From: a virus
Taxonomy: Duplodnaviria; Caudoviricetes
Direction: 5' to 3' (one strand)
IMG/VR virus record: IMGVR_UViG_3300025872_000064
Span: 1-57,935 of that record
DNA length: 57,935 nucleotides
The notes beneath the pieces are model-generated. The model worked only from the letters and a program-made list of their open reading frames with translations. It ran no database searches and was not told where the DNA came from. The position numbers and the translations under genes are program-made. Shown piece by piece: positions 83-57,935 of this stretch (the first letter of the stretch is position 1; each line of letters begins with the position of its first letter).

Positions 83-138
83 ACAGAACCAGCGGATGAA
101 GCGGACGGCGGAGCCGCCGCTTATCCTGCGTGTTCTCA
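83..138 (+). repeat. attC-like recombination site 1
   Basis: ACAGAAC-CAGCG-GATGAAGCGG...CCGCTTATC-CTGCGT-GTTCTCA: R''/5 nt/L'' with extra G/L'/6 nt/R'. Confidence 0.85.
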
Positions 139-468
139 GTCTCCCAGCATTACCGCCACACCGAACAATGCGGCGCAAGCCGCCAAGTACGCCGTCAAAT
201 ACAACGCCCCGCGAAGCGTCCTTGGCGACGCAACCCACGCCAGCGGGTATAGCAACGTCGCCCAGTAAAACGCCTTACACACCGCCACCTTTACAAATGG
301 CGTCCCTTCTCGCACATAACCCGCAAGGCCCATGATGCCAGCCATGAGGACGCCGGGATAGATGACGAGCGGCAGTGACACTGCGACCCACAGCACAACC
401 AGCGCCGCCCGAGAACCAGCGGATGCAGGAGCCGGCTCGGCGCCCCGGTTGATGTTGTCAGTGTTCAT
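136..468 (-). CDS. Hypothetical membrane protein (gene cassette)
   Basis: Three hydrophobic segments; start lies inside attC 2, stop inside R' of attC 1. Confidence 0.7.
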   Translation of the reverse strand: MNTDNINRGAEPAPASAGSRAALVVLWVAVSLPLVIYPGVLMAGIMGLAGYVREGTPFVKVAVCKAFYWATLLYPLAWVASPRTLRGALYLTAYLAACAALFGVAVMLGD

Positions 469-499
469 GTCTCGCCGCTCCTGATCCTTGGCGTTCTGT
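410..499 (+). repeat. attC-like recombination site 2
   Basis: CGAGAAC-CAGCG-GATGCAGGAGC...GCTCCTGATC-CTTGGC-GTTCTGT. Confidence 0.85.
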
Positions 500-501
500 G
501 T

Positions 502-720
502 CTACTTGGCGTCCGTTGGCGGGGCAGGGAGCGGCATCCAGTGTGTCGGATTTTCTGCCGTACACTCGCCGTCTCGGTCGTAGTCGTACACGTCCAACGA
601 TTGCCACCCGTCCTCTGAAAAGGAAGCAAGAAACGGGCGAGATTGCCCTTCTGCAAAACAAAGGCATACGTCGTCAACTTCTGGCAGACGCTCCGTCACC
701 GGAATCCACTCCCCGCTCAT
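502..720 (-). CDS. DUF551-like phage protein (gene cassette)
   Basis: WIPVTERLPE N-terminal and THWMPLPAPP C-terminal motifs. Confidence 0.85.
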   Translation of the reverse strand: MSGEWIPVTERLPEVDDVCLCFAEGQSRPFLASFSEDGWQSLDVYDYDRDGECTAENPTHWMPLPAPPTDAK

Positions 721-769
721 ATTCGTAATCCGTCACTTTCCGTTGGTTTTCCAATACGTTCGATTCGCC

Positions 770-818
770 ACAGAACCACGCGATGCAGCGGACGAGCCGC
801 TGATCGCTGGCGTTATGG
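770..818 (+). repeat. attC-like recombination site 3 (short, 49 bp)
   Basis: ACAGAAC-CACGC-GATGCAGCGG-ACGAG-CCGCTGATC-GCTGGC-GTTATGG. Confidence 0.8.
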
Positions 819-1013
819 CTATGAAATGAACCGCACCGCGTGCTTGTGAATCTTCCCGTCGCCGGTGCCTTTGCCGTAGGCGATGATCGTTCGGTATTCA
901 ACCGCGACCCACTCCAGCCACCGGGTTTCGCCGCCGACCGTAATGGGCCAAAACGCGAACCACTGGCTGATTGTGTTCCCTTCGGCTGGCCTGTCGATCA
1001 TCTTCCATCTCAT
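819..1013 (-). CDS. Hypothetical protein (gene cassette; MRWKMID...)
   Basis: AGGAGA RBS before ATG at 1013; WFAFWP...TRWLEW motif; stop abuts R' of attC 3. Confidence 0.7.
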   Translation of the reverse strand: MRWKMIDRPAEGNTISQWFAFWPITVGGETRWLEWVAVEYRTIIAYGKGTGDGKIHKHAVRFIS

Positions 1014-1041
1014 CGCTATCTCTCCTGTTGTCTCGCCGCAG

Positions 1042-1096
1042 CCATAACCAGCGCATGAAGCGGACGGCAAGCCGCCGCTTATCATGCGTGTTCAGT
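1042..1096 (+). repeat. attC-like recombination site 4
   Basis: CCATAAC-CAGCG-CATGAAGCGG...CCGCTTATC-ATGCGT-GTTCAGT; near-copy of site 1. Confidence 0.85.
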
Positions 1097-1391
1097 CGAC
1101 CACATCGACAGCCTCCTCCAGGCTCGCAACCGCCCGATCGTCCACGACGATGTCCGCGACCGGCTTGCCCATCACCAACTGGTCGTATGGGATGCTGCGT
1201 TCAAACAGCCACTGTTCAGTCATCGCCAACTCCGACCACGATCTGGCTGTGTGGATGATGATCCGGTAGCCGGCCGTTCGCAGGCTCTCGAGCATCTCGC
1301 GGGAGCCTGGCAACGCCTTCGCCAGCGACCGCTCGAACGTCGGCCGCTCCTCGCAGATCACGCCGTCCATGTCGATGGCCGCCGTCTTCAT
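1092..1391 (-). CDS. HAD-superfamily phosphatase (capsule-biosynthesis phosphatase-like)
   Basis: DMDGVI, HTAR, GKP..D..VDD HAD motifs. Confidence 0.8.
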   Translation of the reverse strand: MKTAAIDMDGVICEERPTFERSLAKALPGSREMLESLRTAGYRIIIHTARSWSELAMTEQWLFERSIPYDQLVMGKPVADIVVDDRAVASLEEAVDVVD

Positions 1392-1939
1392 GGCTTCACC
1401 ACATAGACCACCGGGCCTTCGATCACCACCTGCGCGTGGCCGATGAAGAACTCGTCAACAGCCGCCTTCGCGCCGGGGCAGCAGTCCTCGCCGTAGTCGT
1501 CGAACACGATGATGCCGCCGGGGACGACTTGCTCGTAGAGGAACTCCAGGCACGCGGCGTAGGACTCGTAGTTGTCGACGTCCAGGTGGACGAACCGCAG
1601 GCGGCGGCCGGCGAGAACGTCGCCCGTCTCGGCCGGGAATACGCCTGGGTAAACGCTCACCCGCTTGTCGCCGACAAACATATCCATGACCGCCACGGCG
1701 CTCGTGTCACTGAAGGAGCCAATGCCCCACCTTCCGTCCAGCGTCGGATCGTGATTCGGCATTCCCGTGAAGGTGTCGAACAGGAAGACCTTCGACTGTC
1801 CGGCGTTGTCGACGATTGCTCGAGCGCTGCCACCTTTGTAGACTCCGACCTCGACGATGTCGCCGTCGAGCTTGTCCGTCGACTCGAGGAGTGCCACGAG
1901 GCAGTCAAGTTTGTAGGCGTCAATCAGCGATTCACTCAT
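1388..1939 (-). CDS. TylF/MycF/NovP-family sugar O-methyltransferase
   Basis: GDIVEVGVYKGGS, FDTFTGMP, VHLDVD.Y, GGIIVFDDY. Confidence 0.9.
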   Translation of the reverse strand: MSESLIDAYKLDCLVALLESTDKLDGDIVEVGVYKGGSARAIVDNAGQSKVFLFDTFTGMPNHDPTLDGRWGIGSFSDTSAVAVMDMFVGDKRVSVYPGVFPAETGDVLAGRRLRFVHLDVDNYESYAACLEFLYEQVVPGGIIVFDDYGEDCCPGAKAAVDEFFIGHAQVVIEGPVVYVVKP

Positions 1940-2805
1940 CGGAAACTCTCCGCGTGATACCGCCGCATCGTCAGCGGCGCGATCTTCCAGGGAGGGCCGT
2001 CAACGTTGTGGCCGAGGGCCAGGGCCACAAGCGGCAGGCCAGCGGCGATCGACAGGACGCTGCCGCCGCCGAACCTCGGGTTGACCTCGATGATCTTGCC
2101 GCCTTTGAACTGCACGTTCGCCGGCCCGACGATCCCCAGGTCCGCACACACCGCCGCGGCGTCGATCAGGTAGGACACCGACGCCTCGGGGGCGAGCACC
2201 GTCGACTCGATAACTTCTCCACCCTCGACGCGGTCGCGGCTGCGGGCCACGGCGCCGCGGCACTGTCCGGCGCCCAGGAAGAGGTCGACCGACACCTCGT
2301 CGCCGTCGAGGTAGTCCTGGATCACCCACGACGCCGACATTTCGATCGTCTCGGGGCGATGCAGCACCTTCGTCCCGCGGGAGCCGTGGCCGAATCGGGG
2401 CTTCGCGAACTTCGGATACCGCGTCAGCCGCGGGGCCGGGTAGACGTCTGGGTGGTGCTCCTTCATCCAATTTGCGAAGTGCAACTTGTCGTGGCAGAGC
2501 ATCGCCACGGCGGCCGGCGAGCCGATGCACTGCTCCATGTCGCCGCACACAACCGTGGCCTCGTCCATGAGCGGGACGATATGCGTGATCTTCCGGCGAG
2601 CGGCGAACTCGATGATGTCGGGGCCGCACTCGGGATCGTCGAAGTCCATGCCTTCGACGACCTCCTTGGCGACGTCGGCCAAAGGGACGTCGATGCTCGA
2701 CTCGTAGCCGTAGACGTCGGCGTTCCTGGCGATGAACTCATTCGCCAGCGACACCCGACGTCCACCGCCTACGAACAGGACGCGGCTTTTACGAGGCTTG
2801 CGCAT
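1936..2805 (-). CDS. ATP-grasp protein (carbamoyl-phosphate-synthase-like, polysaccharide-cluster type)
   Basis: GGGRRVSL, CHDK, KPRFGHGS, IQDYLDGDE, IEVNPRFGGG; start reassigned to MRKPRK. Confidence 0.8.
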   Translation of the reverse strand: MRKPRKSRVLFVGGGRRVSLANEFIARNADVYGYESSIDVPLADVAKEVVEGMDFDDPECGPDIIEFAARRKITHIVPLMDEATVVCGDMEQCIGSPAAVAMLCHDKLHFANWMKEHHPDVYPAPRLTRYPKFAKPRFGHGSRGTKVLHRPETIEMSASWVIQDYLDGDEVSVDLFLGAGQCRGAVARSRDRVEGGEVIESTVLAPEASVSYLIDAAAVCADLGIVGPANVQFKGGKIIEVNPRFGGGSVLSIAAGLPLVALALGHNVDGPPWKIAPLTMRRYHAESFR

Positions 2806-3869
2806 ACTTTCTCCACATCGTTCTCGGTCAGGCTCGTGTGTGTCGGCAGGACGAGGCCGTATCGGTACAACGAATCGGCGGCGTATATGCGACGGCCTGT
2901 TCTCCCAGCCCGCTGCACATGCTGGAAGTGACAGACGGGAGGAAAGATCGGTCGCGTCTCGATGCCGTCCTCGCGCATCAGTCGCTCGACATGGCGGGCG
3001 TCCATCGGTCGTCCGTATTCCTTGACGACGGCGAACGCCCAGCACCCGTGCGTGTCGTCCTTCGCGACCTCTTGGCGGCGGAAACGGTCAGGCAGGCGGG
3101 AGTTGTACCAGTCGAATACCTGACGGCGCTTCTCCATGAACTCCGACAGGCGGGAGAGTTGCGCCACGCCGATGGCGGCCTGCACCTCGGTCATCCGGTA
3201 GTTCCACCCCAGCGCGTCGTGGACGTAGCGGGTCGCCGTCATCGCCTGGCCGGCGAGGTGGGCGATCCGCTCCGCGAAGAGCTTCTCCTGCGTGCCGACG
3301 GCACCGCCCTCTCCGGTCGTGATCGTCTTCGACCCGTAGAACGAGTAGCAGTTCATGTCCGCAGCCGGCGCCCACCCGCTGCGGAGGCACCCGATGCTTT
3401 CGGCGCAGTCTTCGATGATGACGATCCGCCGGCCCGTCGAGCGGTAGTAGTCGACCTTCCAGTCATTCAGCGACGGCGCCGGCACGCCGTACAGATGCAC
3501 GGGAATGATCGCCTTCGTCTTCTCCGTCACGGCCGCCGCCATCTCGTTCAGGTCGATCGTCCACGACCTCGGATCGACGTCCACAACCACCGGCTTTGCG
3601 CCGCAGTAGAGAACCGCGTTCACCGTGGCAACAAACGTCGTCGCTGGGACGATGACTTCGTCGCCACGACCGACGCCGGCCGCCAGGAGGGCCAGGTGCA
3701 GAGCGGCCGTGCCGCTCGAGACGGCGTGCATGTGGAGGCCGTTGATGCCGCCGAAGAGCCGCTCGAACTCAGCCACGACGGGGCCACGAGTCAGTTGACC
3801 GCCGCGCAGCACATCGAGCACAGCGGTTTCTTCCGCTACGCCGATGTCAGGTTGCCCGCAGTAGATCAC
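2769..3869 (-). CDS. DegT/DnrJ/EryC1/StrS PLP-dependent sugar aminotransferase (perosamine-synthase-like)
   Basis: SSGTAALHLAL, IIEDCAESIG, SFYGSKTITTGEGG, GWNYRMT. Confidence 0.93.
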   Translation of the reverse strand: MIYCGQPDIGVAEETAVLDVLRGGQLTRGPVVAEFERLFGGINGLHMHAVSSGTAALHLALLAAGVGRGDEVIVPATTFVATVNAVLYCGAKPVVVDVDPRSWTIDLNEMAAAVTEKTKAIIPVHLYGVPAPSLNDWKVDYYRSTGRRIVIIEDCAESIGCLRSGWAPAADMNCYSFYGSKTITTGEGGAVGTQEKLFAERIAHLAGQAMTATRYVHDALGWNYRMTEVQAAIGVAQLSRLSEFMEKRRQVFDWYNSRLPDRFRRQEVAKDDTHGCWAFAVVKEYGRPMDARHVERLMREDGIETRPIFPPVCHFQHVQRAGRTGRRIYAADSLYRYGLVLPTHTSLTENDVEKVCASLVKAASCS

Positions 3870-6164: not shown

Positions 6165-6415
6165 TTCTCAAACCTCACATACAGCGGCCCGTTCTCGCCG
6201 ACGTAGGCGCCGAGGGTGTTGAACGACAGAAACTCGTCTGCCTCCTCGGGCGTCATGCCGTCGCGCTCGACGAGAACGTCGATGCACTTCTCGATGTCAT
6301 AGACGGCGACGGTCGGGTGGTGGTGGTTCACGGTGTAGCCCACCAGGGCCGCCTCGAGGCCGTCGGCCAGCAGGGCGTCGGGGTTGAGTTCGGCGAGAAG
6401 TTCGAGCGTCGTCAT
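6161..6415 (-). CDS. Conserved phage hypothetical protein
   Basis: ADGLEAALVG..AVYD..GMT.EEA.EF.SFN..GAYVGE.GP pattern. Confidence 0.75.
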   Translation of the reverse strand: MTTLELLAELNPDALLADGLEAALVGYTVNHHHPTVAVYDIEKCIDVLVERDGMTPEEADEFLSFNTLGAYVGENGPLYVRFEK

Positions 6416-7548
6416 GCAAACAACCTCTCTCGCTCGACGGACTTGGCGATCCGCTCGTGCGCTAACTTGACGTACTCTGGATTCAACTCACACCCGACTC
6501 CGCTGCGGCCGAGTTTCGCTGCAACAGCAAGCGTCGTCCCAGAGCCGGCGAATGGGTCCAGCACAAGACACGGCACTGGCCTGTGCTCTTGACACTTGCA
6601 CGACGGCTGCCACCCTTTTGTCTCGACAGAGACTCCAGCGACGTCGTTCGCGCAGTGGTTTCCAGTACCCTCTTCGCCATGTCTCTTTGTGTAGGCATTG
6701 GGGCGTGGGCGTGTCAGTTCCTTTCGCTCCGTAATCCTGCCCCACGGCGATCCGCAGTGCGGACAGCAGCCCTCCTCGCTCGTGCCGGCGAGAACGCACG
6801 GCTCGACGAGGTCAGGCGGCATGGTTGCGAAGTGCGCGCCTTTGTAGGGCTTTGTCGTCACCGTCCAGACGGATCGACGGTTGCGGGTTGCCTTTTCCGT
6901 ATATGTACGCTCTTGTCTTTGTATTTTCGTCTCGCTCCCGTCAAGAACCCTCCGAGTCGCGTAGGGGATGTTTTTTGCGTCTTTATGCTTTGCTGTCTCG
7001 CTTACAGCAACCGAGTCGTAGTAATACCGCTCGCTCTTAGTCAGCATAAAAACGTACTCATGCGCCTTCGTGCAGCGATCACGCACGCTCTCTGGCATCG
7101 GGTTTGGCTTGTGCCAGATGATGTCCTGGCGCAGCCACCACCCGTCAGACTGAAGGGCGAAGGCGACTCGCCATGGGATGCCGACAAGGTCTTTGTTTTT
7201 CAGTGACTTGCACGAAAGGCCGTTCCCTTTTGGCAGTGAGGGGCACGCGACCTCTGTTGCTGCCTGGAAGGACGTAGAACCGCCACGATTCCCGTTGTAT
7301 GCGTTGTACGAATCCCCCAGGTTTACCCAGCAAGTCCCGTCCTCGCGCAGCACACGCCGCACCTCGCGGAACACCTCCACCATGCGGGCGACGTAGGCTT
7401 CCGGTGTGGACTCCAGGCCGATCTGCCCGTCATGGCCGTAGTCACGCAAACCCCAGTATGGCGGGCTTGTTACGCAGCAGTGGACGCTGTCGTCTGCGAG
7501 CGTCCGCAACCCTTCGATGCAGTCGCCTTGAATAATCCTGTGTTCCAT
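6412..7548 (-). CDS. Site-specific DNA methyltransferase (N4-C/N6-A, beta class)
   Basis: VTSPPYWGLRDY, DIIWHKPNPMPES, HFATMP, VLDPFAGSGTT; TGATG coupling. Confidence 0.95.
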   Translation of the reverse strand: MEHRIIQGDCIEGLRTLADDSVHCCVTSPPYWGLRDYGHDGQIGLESTPEAYVARMVEVFREVRRVLREDGTCWVNLGDSYNAYNGNRGGSTSFQAATEVACPSLPKGNGLSCKSLKNKDLVGIPWRVAFALQSDGWWLRQDIIWHKPNPMPESVRDRCTKAHEYVFMLTKSERYYYDSVAVSETAKHKDAKNIPYATRRVLDGSETKIQRQERTYTEKATRNRRSVWTVTTKPYKGAHFATMPPDLVEPCVLAGTSEEGCCPHCGSPWGRITERKELTRPRPNAYTKRHGEEGTGNHCANDVAGVSVETKGWQPSCKCQEHRPVPCLVLDPFAGSGTTLAVAAKLGRSGVGCELNPEYVKLAHERIAKSVERERLFA

Positions 7549-7784
7549 CACTCCATCGCCTCCCTGACCTTCCTCGCCACCTCGGGGCTGCGAAACCAGC
7601 CCACGCTCCACGCACACTTCCGCACATCCTCGTCGTCGCCGTGTCCAATCGCGTCCAACTTCGCCACCAGAAACATCACGTTCCGCTCGAGCCGCGCGAC
7701 TCGTTCTTTCGCTTCGTCAAGCCGCCGCCGCAGGCGGCTGTTGCCCTTGATGGCTCCGGTGAGTTCGCGGCGGTAAGTCTTCAT
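7548..7784 (-). CDS. Hypothetical coiled-coil protein
   Basis: ORF coupled to the methyltransferase. Confidence 0.6.
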   Translation of the reverse strand: MKTYRRELTGAIKGNSRLRRRLDEAKERVARLERNVMFLVAKLDAIGHGDDEDVRKCAWSVGWFRSPEVARKVREAME

Positions 7785-17119: not shown

Positions 17120-17974
17120 TTGTTCCTGCACCAGCTACTTGGCGATCTTTACGCCCCGTTGAAGGGGATCAGCGACCGCACCATTCGGCTCTACGGGATG
17201 ACGATCGGCAAGTATCGTCAATTTCTTGGCGGCGTCGAGCCGACAGTAGAGCAACACCTCGACGAACTCGAACTCGCCAAGTTCCTGGCCTGGCGTCTGA
17301 AGACGCGGTCGGTCGGGACGGCGGCGAAGGACAGGGCGCAGTTGCACGCGCTCGCAGAGTTCGCCGCCCGCCGTGGTCTATGCCCTTGGCCGCAGATGCG
17401 CACGATCCGCGTGCCGGAGCGGGTGCCTAGAGCCTGGCTGATCGACGAGTTCAGAAAACTCCTCGTCGCCTGCGATGGAGAGCAAGGCGAAACCTGCGGC
17501 GTGCCGGCGAGCCAATGGTTCCGCGCCATCCTCCAGGCCGCGTACTGGACGGGCGAGCGGATCGGAGGCCTGCTGGCGCTCGAGTGGTCGGACGTCGAGC
17601 CGCAGGCGGTGATCTTCCGCGCCGAGGGGCGGAAGGGGCAGCGGGCCGACATCTACCGGCCGATCCCTCCCGAGTGCTACGAGGCCATCATGGCGACCAA
17701 GACGAGGCGGAAGATCGTCTTCGACTGGGATCGCAGCTACACCCTCATCTGGCACCGCCTCGGCCGCATCTGCGAGCGGGCGGGCCTACCCAATGACCGG
17801 ATGAGCAAGTTCCACCGCGTGAGGAAGACGTCGGCCTCATACTACGCCGCAGCCGGCGGCGACCCGCAGACGCTGATGGGTCACTCGAGTCCGGCCGTCA
17901 CGAGGAAGTACCTAGACCCGAGGATCGTGCGGCCCGACACAAACGCGCCCGACGTCCTGCCGAAAGTCAGTTAG
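17120..17974 (+). CDS. int: Tyrosine recombinase/integrase
   Basis: TGERIG (R), GRK (K), FHRVRK (HxxR), MGHS, TRKY (Y). Confidence 0.9.
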   Translation: MFLHQLLGDLYAPLKGISDRTIRLYGMTIGKYRQFLGGVEPTVEQHLDELELAKFLAWRLKTRSVGTAAKDRAQLHALAEFAARRGLCPWPQMRTIRVPERVPRAWLIDEFRKLLVACDGEQGETCGVPASQWFRAILQAAYWTGERIGGLLALEWSDVEPQAVIFRAEGRKGQRADIYRPIPPECYEAIMATKTRRKIVFDWDRSYTLIWHRLGRICERAGLPNDRMSKFHRVRKTSASYYAAAGGDPQTLMGHSSPAVTRKYLDPRIVRPDTNAPDVLPKVS

Positions 17975-42271: not shown

Positions 42272-43872
42272 GACTTCGTCGCCTCCTCATACGGCCTGCC
42301 GGAGCGGTGACACTCCAGGAGGCGGTTCCTCGTCTCTTCCATCCACGCAAGCGCGAACGCCTCGATGTCGCGGCCAGTGGCCTTTGCGGCGTCCAGCAGT
42401 TCGGTCTTCATCCGCTGCTCGTGGGCCTCGAGCCACGCCTGCAACTTTCCAGGCTTGTTGCGGCGCTCAAGAATCCCGTCGGCCTCGACGGCCGCGAGCC
42501 GCCGGAGCGTCGTGCGGAAGAGCACCTCGGCCGAGGAGCGGGTGCTGGTGGCGGCCTCCGCAGGCGTCGGCCCGTCGTTTCCATCGGTCGGCTGGTCGCC
42601 GTTGTCGACGGAGTTGTCTGCCGGAGCGGCGGCGGTCGGAAGTTCAGCCGGCGCACCCGTCGGATTCTCGGCGGTGAAGGCGTCCAGTAGTTGCATATTC
42701 ACCTGGACGAACCGCTTGTTACCGAGGCCGTCGGGGAGCGGGTTGTAGCCGATCTGGCCGCGGATTTCGTCGACACTAAGACAGCCCATGTTGAACATCT
42801 CTCGCAGGAACTGCGAGCGGGCCTGGTAGTCGCCTGCCATGAGCGCCGACATATCGAACTCGACGAAGTAGTTGGCCGAGTCCGCGATCAGGTCGCGACG
42901 GACGGCAAACTGCCACCGCCGGCAGTGCGGGATGAGCGAGAACGTCGCGAAGTCGATGGCCGACTGCTCGACGGAGTTGTAGCGGACGTTGGACAGGTCG
43001 CCGAGTAGATGCAACGGCACCCGATAGCCGCGCGAGATTTCTTCCACGGCGTAGCGGCGCGTGGCGATAAGCTCCGCGTGCTGGTTGTTGACAGGGTCGT
43101 TCTTCTTGTGGAAGCCGAATGGCATGACCACGGTGGAGAACGCTTTGGTCGGGCCGCGGTGGGCGTCGTCCCACTGGCTCTTGAAGTTCCGCAGCGCGTC
43201 AGGCTTGAACGGCTGATCGGTTTCGATGTACGTCCCCGTCTGGGCGCCGTTGCCAAAGAACGCCGACGAGTGGAGTTCCGTCGCCCTGGCGAGGGCGATG
43301 GCGTCCTTGGCGAGCGAGATCGGGATGTAGCCGGTGACGCCGTCGCTCGAGAGCCAGCGGAGGTGGAAAATCTGATCCTGCCGGTACTTCTTCGGCTCGG
43401 CCTGCATCGGCTCGGTGTATTGGTACTGGAGCCGGCCGTTCTCGAGACGGACGATCGTCATCCGGCTGGCGTGCAGGGGGATCAGTTGGTCGACGGCACC
43501 GCGGCGGCCGGGCTTGATGAGGGAGTAGGCGTTGCCCCAGAGGAGCAACTGGCTCATCATCCACTCCCGCCACTCGAAACTCGTCATCCAGTCATTCGGC
43601 TGGTAGGCGAGGACTTCCTGGAGCGGCTGGTCTTCGGCGATTTCCTTACCTCCACCCGGCAGGCGCCGGTAGAGGTTGAATGGCATCGAGGCGATGCTTT
43701 CCGATAGCACTCTTACGCAGCAAAGTACAGCGCTGCACTTCAGGCTGCTCTCGGGGCTGATGGTGACGCCGGCCGTCGTCTTGTTGTTCTCGACGATTTC
43801 CTCGAAGACGCGAGAGAGGCTGGATCGCATCTCTAGGAGATCAGCAACATTTTCGTCGTCGAAGTCCGGCAT
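42238..43872 (-). CDS. Portal protein (HK97 family)
   Basis: SAV.CCV.VLSE.IAS.P, LLWGNAY, IFHLR, EI.R.Y.VP. Confidence 0.93.
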   Translation of the reverse strand: MPDFDDENVADLLEMRSSLSRVFEEIVENNKTTAGVTISPESSLKCSAVLCCVRVLSESIASMPFNLYRRLPGGGKEIAEDQPLQEVLAYQPNDWMTSFEWREWMMSQLLLWGNAYSLIKPGRRGAVDQLIPLHASRMTIVRLENGRLQYQYTEPMQAEPKKYRQDQIFHLRWLSSDGVTGYIPISLAKDAIALARATELHSSAFFGNGAQTGTYIETDQPFKPDALRNFKSQWDDAHRGPTKAFSTVVMPFGFHKKNDPVNNQHAELIATRRYAVEEISRGYRVPLHLLGDLSNVRYNSVEQSAIDFATFSLIPHCRRWQFAVRRDLIADSANYFVEFDMSALMAGDYQARSQFLREMFNMGCLSVDEIRGQIGYNPLPDGLGNKRFVQVNMQLLDAFTAENPTGAPAELPTAAAPADNSVDNGDQPTDGNDGPTPAEAATSTRSSAEVLFRTTLRRLAAVEADGILERRNKPGKLQAWLEAHEQRMKTELLDAAKATGRDIEAFALAWMEETRNRLLECHRSGRPYEEATKSWTDRANLSDA

Positions 43873-56807: not shown

Positions 56808-56933
56808 GTTCTCGACATTATCCAGCACGTTATCCAGCACCGCCGCGTGTCTCGCGGCCGAACGGCGCATCCCTGCGGCGTGTTATCCAGCGGGACGGGC
56901 GTTTATACGGGTCTGTAGAAACACTGGTTCTCT
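56808..56933 (+). other. Candidate attI-like site
   Basis: GTAGAAA-CACTG-GTTCTCT simple site with no attC hairpin; upstream RTTATCCAGC x3 (56817, 56829, 56882). Confidence 0.5.
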
Positions 56934-56936
56934 CCA

Positions 56937-57773
56937 CTACGCCACGTCCATCGGCAACGCTTGTTGCGCCAGCCGTTTCCTGCTGATCTCGACGTATTCA
57001 GGGTTCACCTCGATCCCGATGAACCTCCGCCCCGTCTCACTCGCCATCATCGCCGTCGTGCCGCTGCCGCTGAATGGGTCGAGCACCACGTCGCCTGAGT
57101 TGCTCCAGCTCACGATATGGTCGCGGGCCAGCCGCTCAGGAAACTGTGCTGGATGAAACCTCTTGCGGCTGCTCGTCTCTGGTGCCACGTTCCAAACATT
57201 GAACCGTATTCCGTGCTCTGCCATCCGCTTCCCTTCATGTGATTTGCGGATCAGATCACCGCTCGGCAGGCGAATCGTTCCAGCCTTTCCGATTGCACCA
57301 GCGTAAACGTTCTTCCGATCCCGAATCGGGTTGAACGTCTTCGGCTTTCCTTTGCTGAAAACGAGCATGTATTCACTGCTCGGCCCGTATCGAACACGAA
57401 CCGACCCTACTCCAGTGAAGCACCCTTTGTTCCAGATCATCGTGTCGTGAAGTCGCAGGCCGATTCCCTTGAAATGCAGCGCCTGCGAAAAACTCGTCCC
57501 TGTCTCGTCGCCGTCTTTCGTCTCGTCGTTGACCACCCACACAATGACCCCGCCCGGCTTAAGCAGCCGCTTCAGATTCCACGCCACCCCGTAGAAATCC
57601 CACGAGTGGCCGCCGTAGGTGCGAAGGTCATCGTATGGCGGGCTCGTCACCACGAGGTCAATCGACTCGCTCGGCATCTGCCGCATCACTTCGCAGTTAT
57701 CCCCGCAAATGATTTGATCCAGCGGGAGAGAACCAGCCGATGCAACGGACGGCCCTGCTACGTCATGTGTCAT
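56937..57773 (-). CDS. Site-specific DNA methyltransferase (N4-C/N6-A, beta class), carried as a gene cassette
   Basis: VTSPPY, HPAQFP, VLDPFSGSGTT; GAGGA RBS and ATG lie inside attC 5. Confidence 0.93.
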   Translation of the reverse strand: MTHDVAGPSVASAGSLPLDQIICGDNCEVMRQMPSESIDLVVTSPPYDDLRTYGGHSWDFYGVAWNLKRLLKPGGVIVWVVNDETKDGDETGTSFSQALHFKGIGLRLHDTMIWNKGCFTGVGSVRVRYGPSSEYMLVFSKGKPKTFNPIRDRKNVYAGAIGKAGTIRLPSGDLIRKSHEGKRMAEHGIRFNVWNVAPETSSRKRFHPAQFPERLARDHIVSWSNSGDVVLDPFSGSGTTAMMASETGRRFIGIEVNPEYVEISRKRLAQQALPMDVA

Positions 57774-57815
57774 GGTGAGTCCTCTGGTGGCCGCCGTTGA
57801 TCTTCCGTGTTCTCT
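57727..57815 (+). repeat. attC-like recombination site 5
   Basis: AGAGAAC-CAGCC-GATGCAACGG...CCGTTGATC-TTCCGT-GTTCTCT. Confidence 0.85.
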
Positions 57816-57935
57816 CACTTCGTCCGTTCAATCAACGCCCGCAGCGTGGACACGACATTCGCCTCGCGCCTTTCATCATCGGCGTCTGCTTTGTCGCAAA
57901 GAGCAGCACACTCGCAAGTGAATATCGCTTCCTCA
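57815..57935 (-). CDS. 3' part of a small hypothetical cassette protein (...STLRALIERTK*)
   Basis: Open frame from the window end to a TGA abutting R' of attC 5. Confidence 0.6.
   Translation of the reverse strand, partial: EEAIFTCECAALCDKADADDERREANVVSTLRALIERTK

Follow-up and report, generated by a model that had tools for sequence, protein, structure and literature searches.

Integrons are regarded as bacterial devices, with phages as occasional carriers of their fragments, and the locus described here raises the question of whether a phage can organize its own variable genes as an integron cassette array and, if so, which enzyme moves the cassettes. The window, that is, the whole stretch of DNA that was analysed, is the complete IMG/VR virus record IMGVR_UViG_3300025872_000064 (57,935 bp, 63.7% G+C) of a tailed phage, in which an original prediction made from the sequence alone had recognized five imperfect palindromes with the anatomy of attC sites, separating single short genes. 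The attC-type sites and an attI-like end together probably form an integrase-less integron cassette array, that is, a cluster of attC sites lacking integrases (CALIN), here provided with an anchor, whose cassettes are moved at G/TT by a host integron integrase (IntI) acting in trans.

Exactly five structured sites were found in the window, all on the + strand and at the places originally indicated; the bit scores given with them were obtained with the covariance model R1 described below.

57724-57818, + strand: site 5, long-loop class; AAC at 57731-57733, GTT at 57809-57811; folded; 31.4 bits with filters off, 55.7 bits full-length
81-140, + strand: site 1, short-loop class; AAC at 87-89, GTT at 132-134; 86.8 bits, E 1.7e-24
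408-501, + strand: site 2, long-loop class; AAC at 414-416, GTT at 493-495; 22.7 bits with filters off, 51 bits full-length
768-820, + strand: site 3, minimal 5-nt loop class; AAC at 774-776, GTT at 812-814; 45.5 bits, E 1.3e-11
1040-1098, + strand: site 4, last site of the array; AAC at 1046-1048, GTT at 1090-1092; 66.1 bits, E 4.7e-18

Each of the five is an imperfect palindrome of the form R''-L''-loop-L'-R', with AAC in R'' and GTT in R', and the same layout is found in all: a variable box ending in AAC, 5 nt, a 3-bp stem, an unpaired G, a 6-bp stem, an unpaired A, a further stem whose loop measures 5, 12 or about 45 nt, the arms complementary to these stems, 6 nt, GTT and a second variable box. 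The sites are contiguous across the record ends, lying within 1.3 kb across the junction. A 60-codon Cys-rich open reading frame (ORF) with CxxC motifs on the minus strand is stop-free from 57818 over the record end to 74 and becomes whole only on joining of the ends (57818-57935 plus 1-74); the record is therefore circularly permuted, and the fifth site belongs to the same contiguous array as the other four. The topology label given by IMG/VR, which is linear, therefore hides a circular or terminally redundant genome, for which CheckV estimates a completeness of 100%.

The sites delimit five cassettes, each consisting of one small gene, between an attI-like terminal element on one side and a fixed flank on the other.

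56815-56929, + strand: attI-like terminal element with four direct TTAT(C/A)C motifs and a GC-rich inverted repeat, ending in ...AGAAACACTG/GTT at 56927-56929
56928-57809, minus strand: cassette 1, bounded by GTT 56927-56929 and GTT 57809-57811; N6/N4 DNA methyltransferase gene at 56937-57773
57810-57935 plus 1-132 (site 1 included), minus strand: cassette 2, ending at GTT 132-134; 60-aa Cys-rich ORF across the junction
133-493, minus strand: cassette 3, bounded by GTT 132-134 and GTT 493-495; 110-aa hydrophobic ORF at 136-468
494-812, minus strand: cassette 4; DUF551 gene at 502-720 (PF04448, E 2.8e-12)
813-1090, minus strand: cassette 5; 64-aa ORF at 819-1013
1092-1391, minus-strand block: HAD-like gene, the fixed flank after site 4

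The methyltransferase of cassette 1 matches PF01555 (E 8.5e-43) and phrog_67 (E 7.5e-67), while the 110-aa ORF of cassette 3 has no family match. The ribosome-binding site and ATG of the methyltransferase lie inside the loop of site 5; likewise, the ORF of cassette 3 starts in the loop of site 2 and stops in the R' box of site 1.

Model R1 rests on alignment A2 of 36 short-loop sites, of which three belong to the window and 33 to related contigs. With filters off it returned exactly the five sites on the + strand (E 1.7e-24 to 1.7e-4), and a scan of all 57,935 bases gave nothing else with E below 0.1 except weaker reverse-strand echoes of these five. A 23-mer of the 5' arm, with up to three mismatches allowed, has four matches in the window, none being expected from 100 shuffles; site 3 escapes this pattern through its larger number of mismatches. 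Every changed stem position in the divergent sites 2 and 5 is compensated, as seen in the R1 alignment for two divergent stem positions of site 2. Rfam and tRNA scans gave no match for the sites.

The same sites recur well beyond this phage. The exact 20-mer of the 5' arm is present in 96 IMG/VR contigs (4-205 kb), with a complete site at almost every occurrence, and R1 finds arrays of up to seven sites per locus; the family sites of each locus lie on one strand, no locus having sites on both. A structural finder (AAC, 5 nt, 3 bp, bulge, 6 bp, complementary 9 nt with at most one mismatch, 6 nt, GTT) detected 290 sites in the fetched loci as against four in shuffled copies. The loops fall into three length classes (5-7, 11-12 and 44-47 nt), and of 204 unique sites, 189 have the bulged G on the top strand and 193 the bulged A. 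In an alignment of 148 distinct sites, which was fitted to the model and so favours structure, standard pairs occupy 98.9% of cells (88.2% when shuffled), two-sided changes occur in eight of the 16 pairs, and there are 192 double-change cells, compared with 36.2±4.8 in shuffled alignments (none of 500 reaching 192) and 9-20 with partners slid. The structural check proposed with the original prediction thus turned out in its favour: a structure-aware model finds the sites and their stems covary. The array-bearing viral records (G001-G044) are roughly 19-205 kb in size, some of the complete ones measuring 35-93 kb and five having direct terminal repeats; the array type is therefore common to quite different phages and not confined to one lineage. 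In run X1, the probable source sample, k-mers of the core site reach a depth of 350-430, as against 32-40 for unique phage sequence, and many other arrays with the same cores must therefore coexist there.

In integron arrays, the box that follows G/TT at the left end of a cassette is the former pairing partner of the R'' box in the attC site of the same cassette. The pairings originally quoted for the window proved correct for site 4 (9/9 with the core at 812), site 3 (8/8 with 493) and site 2 (6/7 with 132); for site 5, the complementarity to 56927 stood, the figure of 7/7 being too low, since the boxes in fact pair at 9/9 (GGAGAGAAC / GTTCTCTCC). At site 1 neither partner is favoured by the R'' box (5/8 with each); three of the five window sites have clearly discriminating boxes. 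For the family, the 6 nt beyond AAC in R'' were compared in 154 cassettes and in the 132 non-redundant cassettes obtained by clustering them at 75% nucleotide identity. R'' matches the 6 nt after GTT of the preceding site at 4.77/6 (4.75/6 in the non-redundant set) and the box of its own hairpin at 2.84/6 (2.83/6), random pairs among the 154 giving 2.81/6. The across-cassette match is the better one in 100 of the non-redundant cassettes, the worse in 14 and tied in 18 (Wilcoxon p 2e-15). Within one hairpin, complementarity of the outer boxes is at chance level; between the two ends of a cassette it is above chance, a footprint that a purely RNA- or DNA-structural hairpin would not give.

Five pairs of cassettes found in differing contexts were compared to one another. 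The body of window cassette 5 is 100% identical to that of a cassette in viral locus L008, where the flanks are unrelated and the left site belongs to another loop class; identity extends from GTT 812 to just past GTT 1090, with four differences in the right core. Both breaks between L009_2 and L029_3 fall exactly at GTT, and these cassettes, with bodies 87% identical, have an identical 76-nt right core that includes the variable loop, as expected if the right-hand core is part of the cassette. The identity between L013_1 and L046_1 starts at GTT and an unusual L box is kept, the loops being different; for L020_2 and L061_5 the left break lies 7 nt past GTT and the right break within the core, and for L058_1 and L072_3 the divergence is too high to place breakpoints. 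Among Logan contigs of other studies, in which loose ends alone were used as breakpoints, divergence from the window is seen at 493, 814 and 1090: run X6 has the DUF551 cassette directly after the terminal element, joined at 493, runs X5 and X1 have other cassettes after site 3, past 814, and in run X5 a relative breaks at 1090, where another core stands before its HAD region. Joints inside Logan contigs were set aside, as their sides of 18-48 nt lie within cores common to many phages and are unassignable to this phage. Relatives thus differ by whole cassettes with breakpoints at GTT, as had been anticipated, and exchange at G/TT is supported; exchange inside the conserved core also seems to occur.

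Sites of this type were also sought in bacteria. A scan of genome contigs with the 20-mer gave 16 matches, six of them real sites, four of which are in metagenome-assembled genomes (MAGs) of Planctomycetota. The other ten are chance matches inside coding sequence; one of these, in a Chromatiaceae MAG whose contig also carries a broken intI, was dropped. The remaining two real sites, on contigs of 1.3 and 3.3 kb in MAGs from unnamed or other lineages, were taken as mis-binned phage DNA. The order of one site-bearing MAG, Pirellulales, was then sampled with 151 genomes; 23 of these have R1 matches, and IntI scores over the NCBIfam cut-off in 23 of the 151. On one contig (G178:C155), intI has three sites 1.2-2.6 kb upstream of it, on the divergent strand; they have the L box of the phage sites of C/G type and carry the same cassette footprint, and longer arrays of the same geometry occur on G166:C23 and G170:C3. 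The link to a planctomycete host that the original prediction had hinted at is borne out to the extent that the same site type stands beside intI in Pirellulales genomes (arrays beside intI being present on G178:C155 and G170:C3, and not in the phage itself). One 42.8-kb contig from a Pirellulales MAG (G047:C24) has family sites at both ends (47-139 and 42735-42788) and looks like another circularly permuted phage genome whose assembly was broken inside the array; the same bin holds IntI on a 1.6-kb contig. At least 250 IMG/VR contigs classed as viral encode full-length IntI relatives with 45-57% identity to Pirellulales IntI, and many of these loci (L151-L230), which may be phages or else bacterial integrons misclassified as viral, have canonical attC arrays on the divergent strand. 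In the best 80 of these contigs the phage site family is absent, apart from one stray site, and so is the terminal element, whose single motif match (L154) lies inside a gene, far from intI.

The polarity of the sites follows from their extrahelical bases. According to the accessible text of PMC5027507, these lie on the arm opposite 5'-AAC-3' in the recombinogenic bottom strand and on the same arm in the top strand, the base inside L'' being usually G and the distal one a conserved T, with a 6-bp stem between them. On the minus strand of all five window sites a bulged T, 6 bp and a bulged C are found on the 3' arm, opposite AAC; all five have extrahelical bases 6 bp apart, a distal T and an unpaired central spacer of 5-6 nt. 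By the rule in that text, the + strand of the window is therefore the top strand and the minus strand the bottom strand. The assignment was checked in the 80 IntI-bearing loci, in which nearly all finder sites lie on the strand opposite intI, as is canonical, and the top-strand bulge is mostly C; in Pirellulales chromosomes the sites beside intI lie on the divergent strand and have a top-strand bulge G, as in the phage.

All five window cassette genes are on the minus strand, that is, on the bottom strand of attC, and the site consequently precedes the gene in the transcript. The phage cassettes thus depart from the canonical cassette, in which a promoterless ORF on the attC top strand is followed by attC. 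The longest ORF of a cassette fills a median of 96% of the inter-site space, its stop is mostly within 1-10 nt of the G of GTT, and it starts inside the long loop in 65 of the 94 long-loop cassettes. Where the gene starts in the loop, the L''/R'' arm of the site is itself translated (57727-57773 and 414-468, minus strand), and the methyltransferase and the 110-aa protein consequently have in common an N-terminal ...ASAGS... stretch encoded by the site. Pfam matches tell the same story of strand: 135 bottom-strand ORFs of the phage cassettes gave 23 Pfam families (DUF551 in 15, DNA methyltransferases in five, HNH, AP2, HTH and others) and 110 top-strand ORFs gave none, whereas in the Pirellulales arrays 17 top-strand ORFs gave six families (HicA in two, SUKH, DUF5677, DUF2442) and 17 bottom-strand ORFs none. 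The phage cassettes are therefore reversed with respect to host cassettes of the same site type. PHROGs adds Mom-like, PAPS-reductase and phosphoesterase families to the bottom-strand ORFs, and about 100 of the 135 have no Pfam match. The original view of a cassette platform shuffling phage-type genes is supported by this inventory, DUF551 proteins, DNA methyltransferases and HNH proteins being found in cassettes by whole units of which relatives differ.

The terminal element closes the array on the side of cassette 1, its end being the left boundary of that cassette and its GTT box the one that complements the R'' box of site 5. A left-end GTT box complementing the first R'' is present in 68 of the 87 arrays with enough upstream sequence, and a conserved terminal element precedes that GTT in 39 of the 68 (37 unique sequences), the family version having two to four direct TTATNC motifs, a GC-rich inverted repeat and the end AGAAACACTG/GTT. 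An attI site is an integrase-specific site at the promoter-proximal end of an array, with direct repeats and a simple site ending in G/TT, and both the position and the layout of the terminal element recall it. The TTATNC repeats and the end ...CACTG/GTT fit this organization, in this case with no adjacent intI, and the element may act as attI. That it is a copy of a host attI was rejected, since no match above control was found in the 151 Pirellulales genomes; the upstream regions of 11 Pirellulales intI genes have no common motif, only loose resemblances being seen (TATACGG..CATTG/GTT in G170 and a repeated GTTTATCCGGA in G166). A tblastn search with ten window proteins against all loci found none that consistently adjoins the array.

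The interpretation of the locus as a CALIN with an anchor, served by a host integrase, brings these observations together. Cassettes would be gained, lost and swapped between phages by site-specific recombination at the G/TT of folded single-stranded (bottom-strand) sites, with the host providing the integron integrase in trans in the course of infection or lysogeny. A host IntI is proposed because IntI is common in Pirellulales and the host attC sites have the same geometry and, in part, the same sequence; no IntI was seen in the phage records, so we infer the catalyst. The phage has at least two close attC sites and no intI, as a CALIN does, and not the intI adjoining attI and array that make a complete integron.

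Several observations weigh against this interpretation. There is no match to IntI (TIGR02249) in the window at E<=1, and none of the 44 array-bearing viral records has IntI over the cut-off, one weak match reaching 24.8 bits. The bottom-strand bulge in L'' is C where G is usual, a feature also of the host Pirellulales sites, and the bottom strand is barely the more stable of the two, by a mean of -0.48 kcal/mol (more stable at 134 sites, less at 68, tied at 17), the two strands being equal for short sites. A degenerate pattern of the terminal element has four matches in the 151 Pirellulales genomes, as against five for the reversed control. The longest ORF is on the strand opposite to the canonical one in 132 of the 154 cassettes, and we know of no functional integron with this reversed gene orientation. 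Two of the five informative cassette pairs have the body in common and not the right-hand loop, which suggests that homologous exchange within conserved cores may also occur, and metagenome assembly can misjoin inside repeated cores.

A broader picture, that of a borrowed platform, is held tentatively, at a little short of even chances. A large group of freshwater Planctomycetota phages would carry an attI-like anchor and an attC array through which host IntI trades accessory and anti-restriction genes found in phages only (DNA methyltransferases, Mom-like, HNH and DUF551 proteins); the cassettes being reversed, attC would serve as 5' leader or start region, and the phage and host pools would be incompatible in expression. 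The runs with this sequence come from freshwater or lake metagenomes or are unlabelled, and the phage host is apparently a freshwater planctomycete.

Among the alternatives, the one that survives best is that the sites are true recombination sites served by an enzyme encoded by the phage itself, with the terminal element as its anchor and no need for host IntI. The enzyme could be an unrecognised protein or the only tyrosine recombinase of the phage, which is the sole candidate encoded in cis.

17120-17974, + strand: tyrosine recombinase of ordinary Xer/phage type (PF00589, 44.5 bits; PF02899)

The lack of IntI in the 44 viral records speaks for such an enzyme, as does the fact that the core and the terminal element, which was not found in host genomes, are conserved much more strongly from phage to phage than from phage to host. 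One PF00589 protein is present in 11 of the 14 array-bearing records that are at least 90% complete; on the other hand, the remaining three have no PF00589 match, and the integrase reading frames range from 282 to 436 aa and are distant from the array, by 17 kb in the window. The window recombinase has no IntI-specific similarity, its best NCBIfam matches scoring 31-45 bits against cut-offs of 220-335 and its comparison with 11 Pirellulales IntI proteins by hhalign giving a probability of 13%. The genes flanking the terminal element are conserved only sporadically (in 2-24 of the loci), and the site type is common to host arrays that stand beside intI. A recombination system of the phage's own is, on balance, unlikely.

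The hairpins could instead be mainly RNA signals of the minus-strand transcript, acting in processing, as terminators or attenuators or in translational control, with shuffling as a by-product of homologous recombination between the conserved repeats, as has been proposed for the promoter/stem-loop repeats of T4-type phages. Such a role would account for the sites preceding each gene in the transcript, for the start codons in the long loops (65 of 94), for the tight loop lengths (5, 12 or 44-47 nt) and for the two of five informative pairs that break inside the conserved core. It offers no account of the random-level match within a hairpin (2.83/6) beside the far better one across the cassette (4.75/6), and leaves unexplained both the GTT breakpoints and the presence, in host integrons beside intI, of this site type with the genes on its other strand; no Rfam family matches the sites either. 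As a full explanation this is quite improbable, and the sites may have a secondary role at the RNA level, possibly as leaders, alongside recombination. A passive piece of a host chromosomal integron or a phage/host assembly chimera is very hard to credit, for although fragments of chromosomal integrons in phages are reported in the accessible text of PMC9892861 and the roughly tenfold core k-mer depth in the probable source run confronts assemblers with many alternatives, the genes are of phage type on the strand opposite to that of host cassettes, the architecture recurs in 96 viral contigs with a common terminal element, one 31-kb unitig joins sites 3-4 to phage genes and the ORF across the record ends is intact.

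The remainder of the window gives the array its setting. A terminase large subunit, portal, head protease and major head protein, together with an SNF2 helicase, a primase-polymerase, a UvrD-type helicase and the tyrosine recombinase, identify a tailed phage of temperate type; nearly all of its genes are on the minus strand, the recombinase being on the strand opposite to most. Two N6/N4 DNA methyltransferases are encoded, one fixed in the replication module (6412-7617) and the other carried as a cassette (56937-57773). The block that adjoins the array (1092-3869, minus strand) contains the HAD-like phosphatase, a TylF-type O-methyltransferase, a DegT-type aminotransferase (phrog_3139) and an ATP-grasp-like 369-aa ORF with no family match; these sugar- or small-molecule-modification genes may form a pathway for DNA or surface-glycan modification. 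The array itself lies between replication and DNA-modification genes and the small genes preceding the terminase, a position occupied in many temperate phages by a mosaic accessory region. Short repeats between accessory ORFs, modular shuffling and a replication/late-gene position are also features of the promoter/stem-loop repeats of T4-type hyperplastic regions and of the nin boundary sequences of lambdoid phages; these act through homologous recombination and are not known to have an AAC/GTT crossover footprint, bulged-hairpin geometry or a host counterpart beside an integrase.

Among the known systems closest to the array are the sedentary chromosomal integrons of Pirellulales (G178:C155, G166:C23 and G170:C3), with which it has in common the geometry, the top-strand bulged G and A, the R''/R' footprint, the L-box sequence of some sites and a long-loop class with a similar stem. 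They differ from it in lying beside intI, in having genes on the top strand, where alone Pfam matches occur (HicA, SUKH, DUF2442), and in attI regions with no match to the phage terminal element. The attC sites of mobile integrons, as far as they are described in the accessible parts of PMC5027507 and PMC2727003, resemble the phage sites in the AAC/GTT of the R box, the unpaired central spacer of 5 and 6 nt, the variable terminal structure, the extrahelical base in the L box, the second extrahelical T 6 bp away (bottom strand) and the presence of the cassette's own R' at its far end; the phage sites differ in the extrahelical base of L'' (C and not G, bottom strand), in a highly conserved core and in the gene on the bottom strand.

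Clusters of attC sites carried by phages have been published, as have their recognition by IntI1 and cassettes with methyltransferases (Qi et al., 2023; PMC9892861), the accessible text of that study describing 17 CALINs in isolated or deposited phages, with co-oriented cassettes typical and divergent sites in one phage. As far as that text goes, its CALINs are like the present array in having at least two attC sites without intI and DNA methyltransferase cassettes, and traffic of cassettes via phages was proposed from them. The present set differs in comprising at least 96 metagenomic viral contigs with up to seven sites, some of which may overlap with the supplementary tables of that study, and, relative to what its accessible text describes, in genes systematically on the bottom strand, start codons in loops, a conserved attI-like end and a site type common to Pirellulales integrons. 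A search of freely accessible full texts returned nothing on arrays in planctomycete phages, reversed cassettes, start codons in loops or an attI-like element without intI. Beyond the original prediction, the analysis thus adds the lack of a detectable integron integrase, the reversed genes, the attI-like end at 56815-56929 and, as far as the accessible text of PMC9892861 goes, the precedent of published phage attC clusters; the array is of interest to specialists in integrons and in phage evolution and is not categorically new.

In this phage group, attC sites are the organizing principle of a whole variable gene region, from which more than 130 distinct cassettes have been sampled and whose design is inverted with respect to that of the host. 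If host IntI is the driver, infection and integron activity would be linked in a new way, the enzyme that stocks bacterial defence cassettes also reshuffling the counter-defence genes of phages. The reversed cassettes amount to a natural experiment on the polarity, transcription and translation of attC, and the conserved terminal element may, as a candidate open to test, represent a new class of attI. The arrays also mark out a wealth of small phage genes without a known function, which are likely to act at the interface between phage and host.

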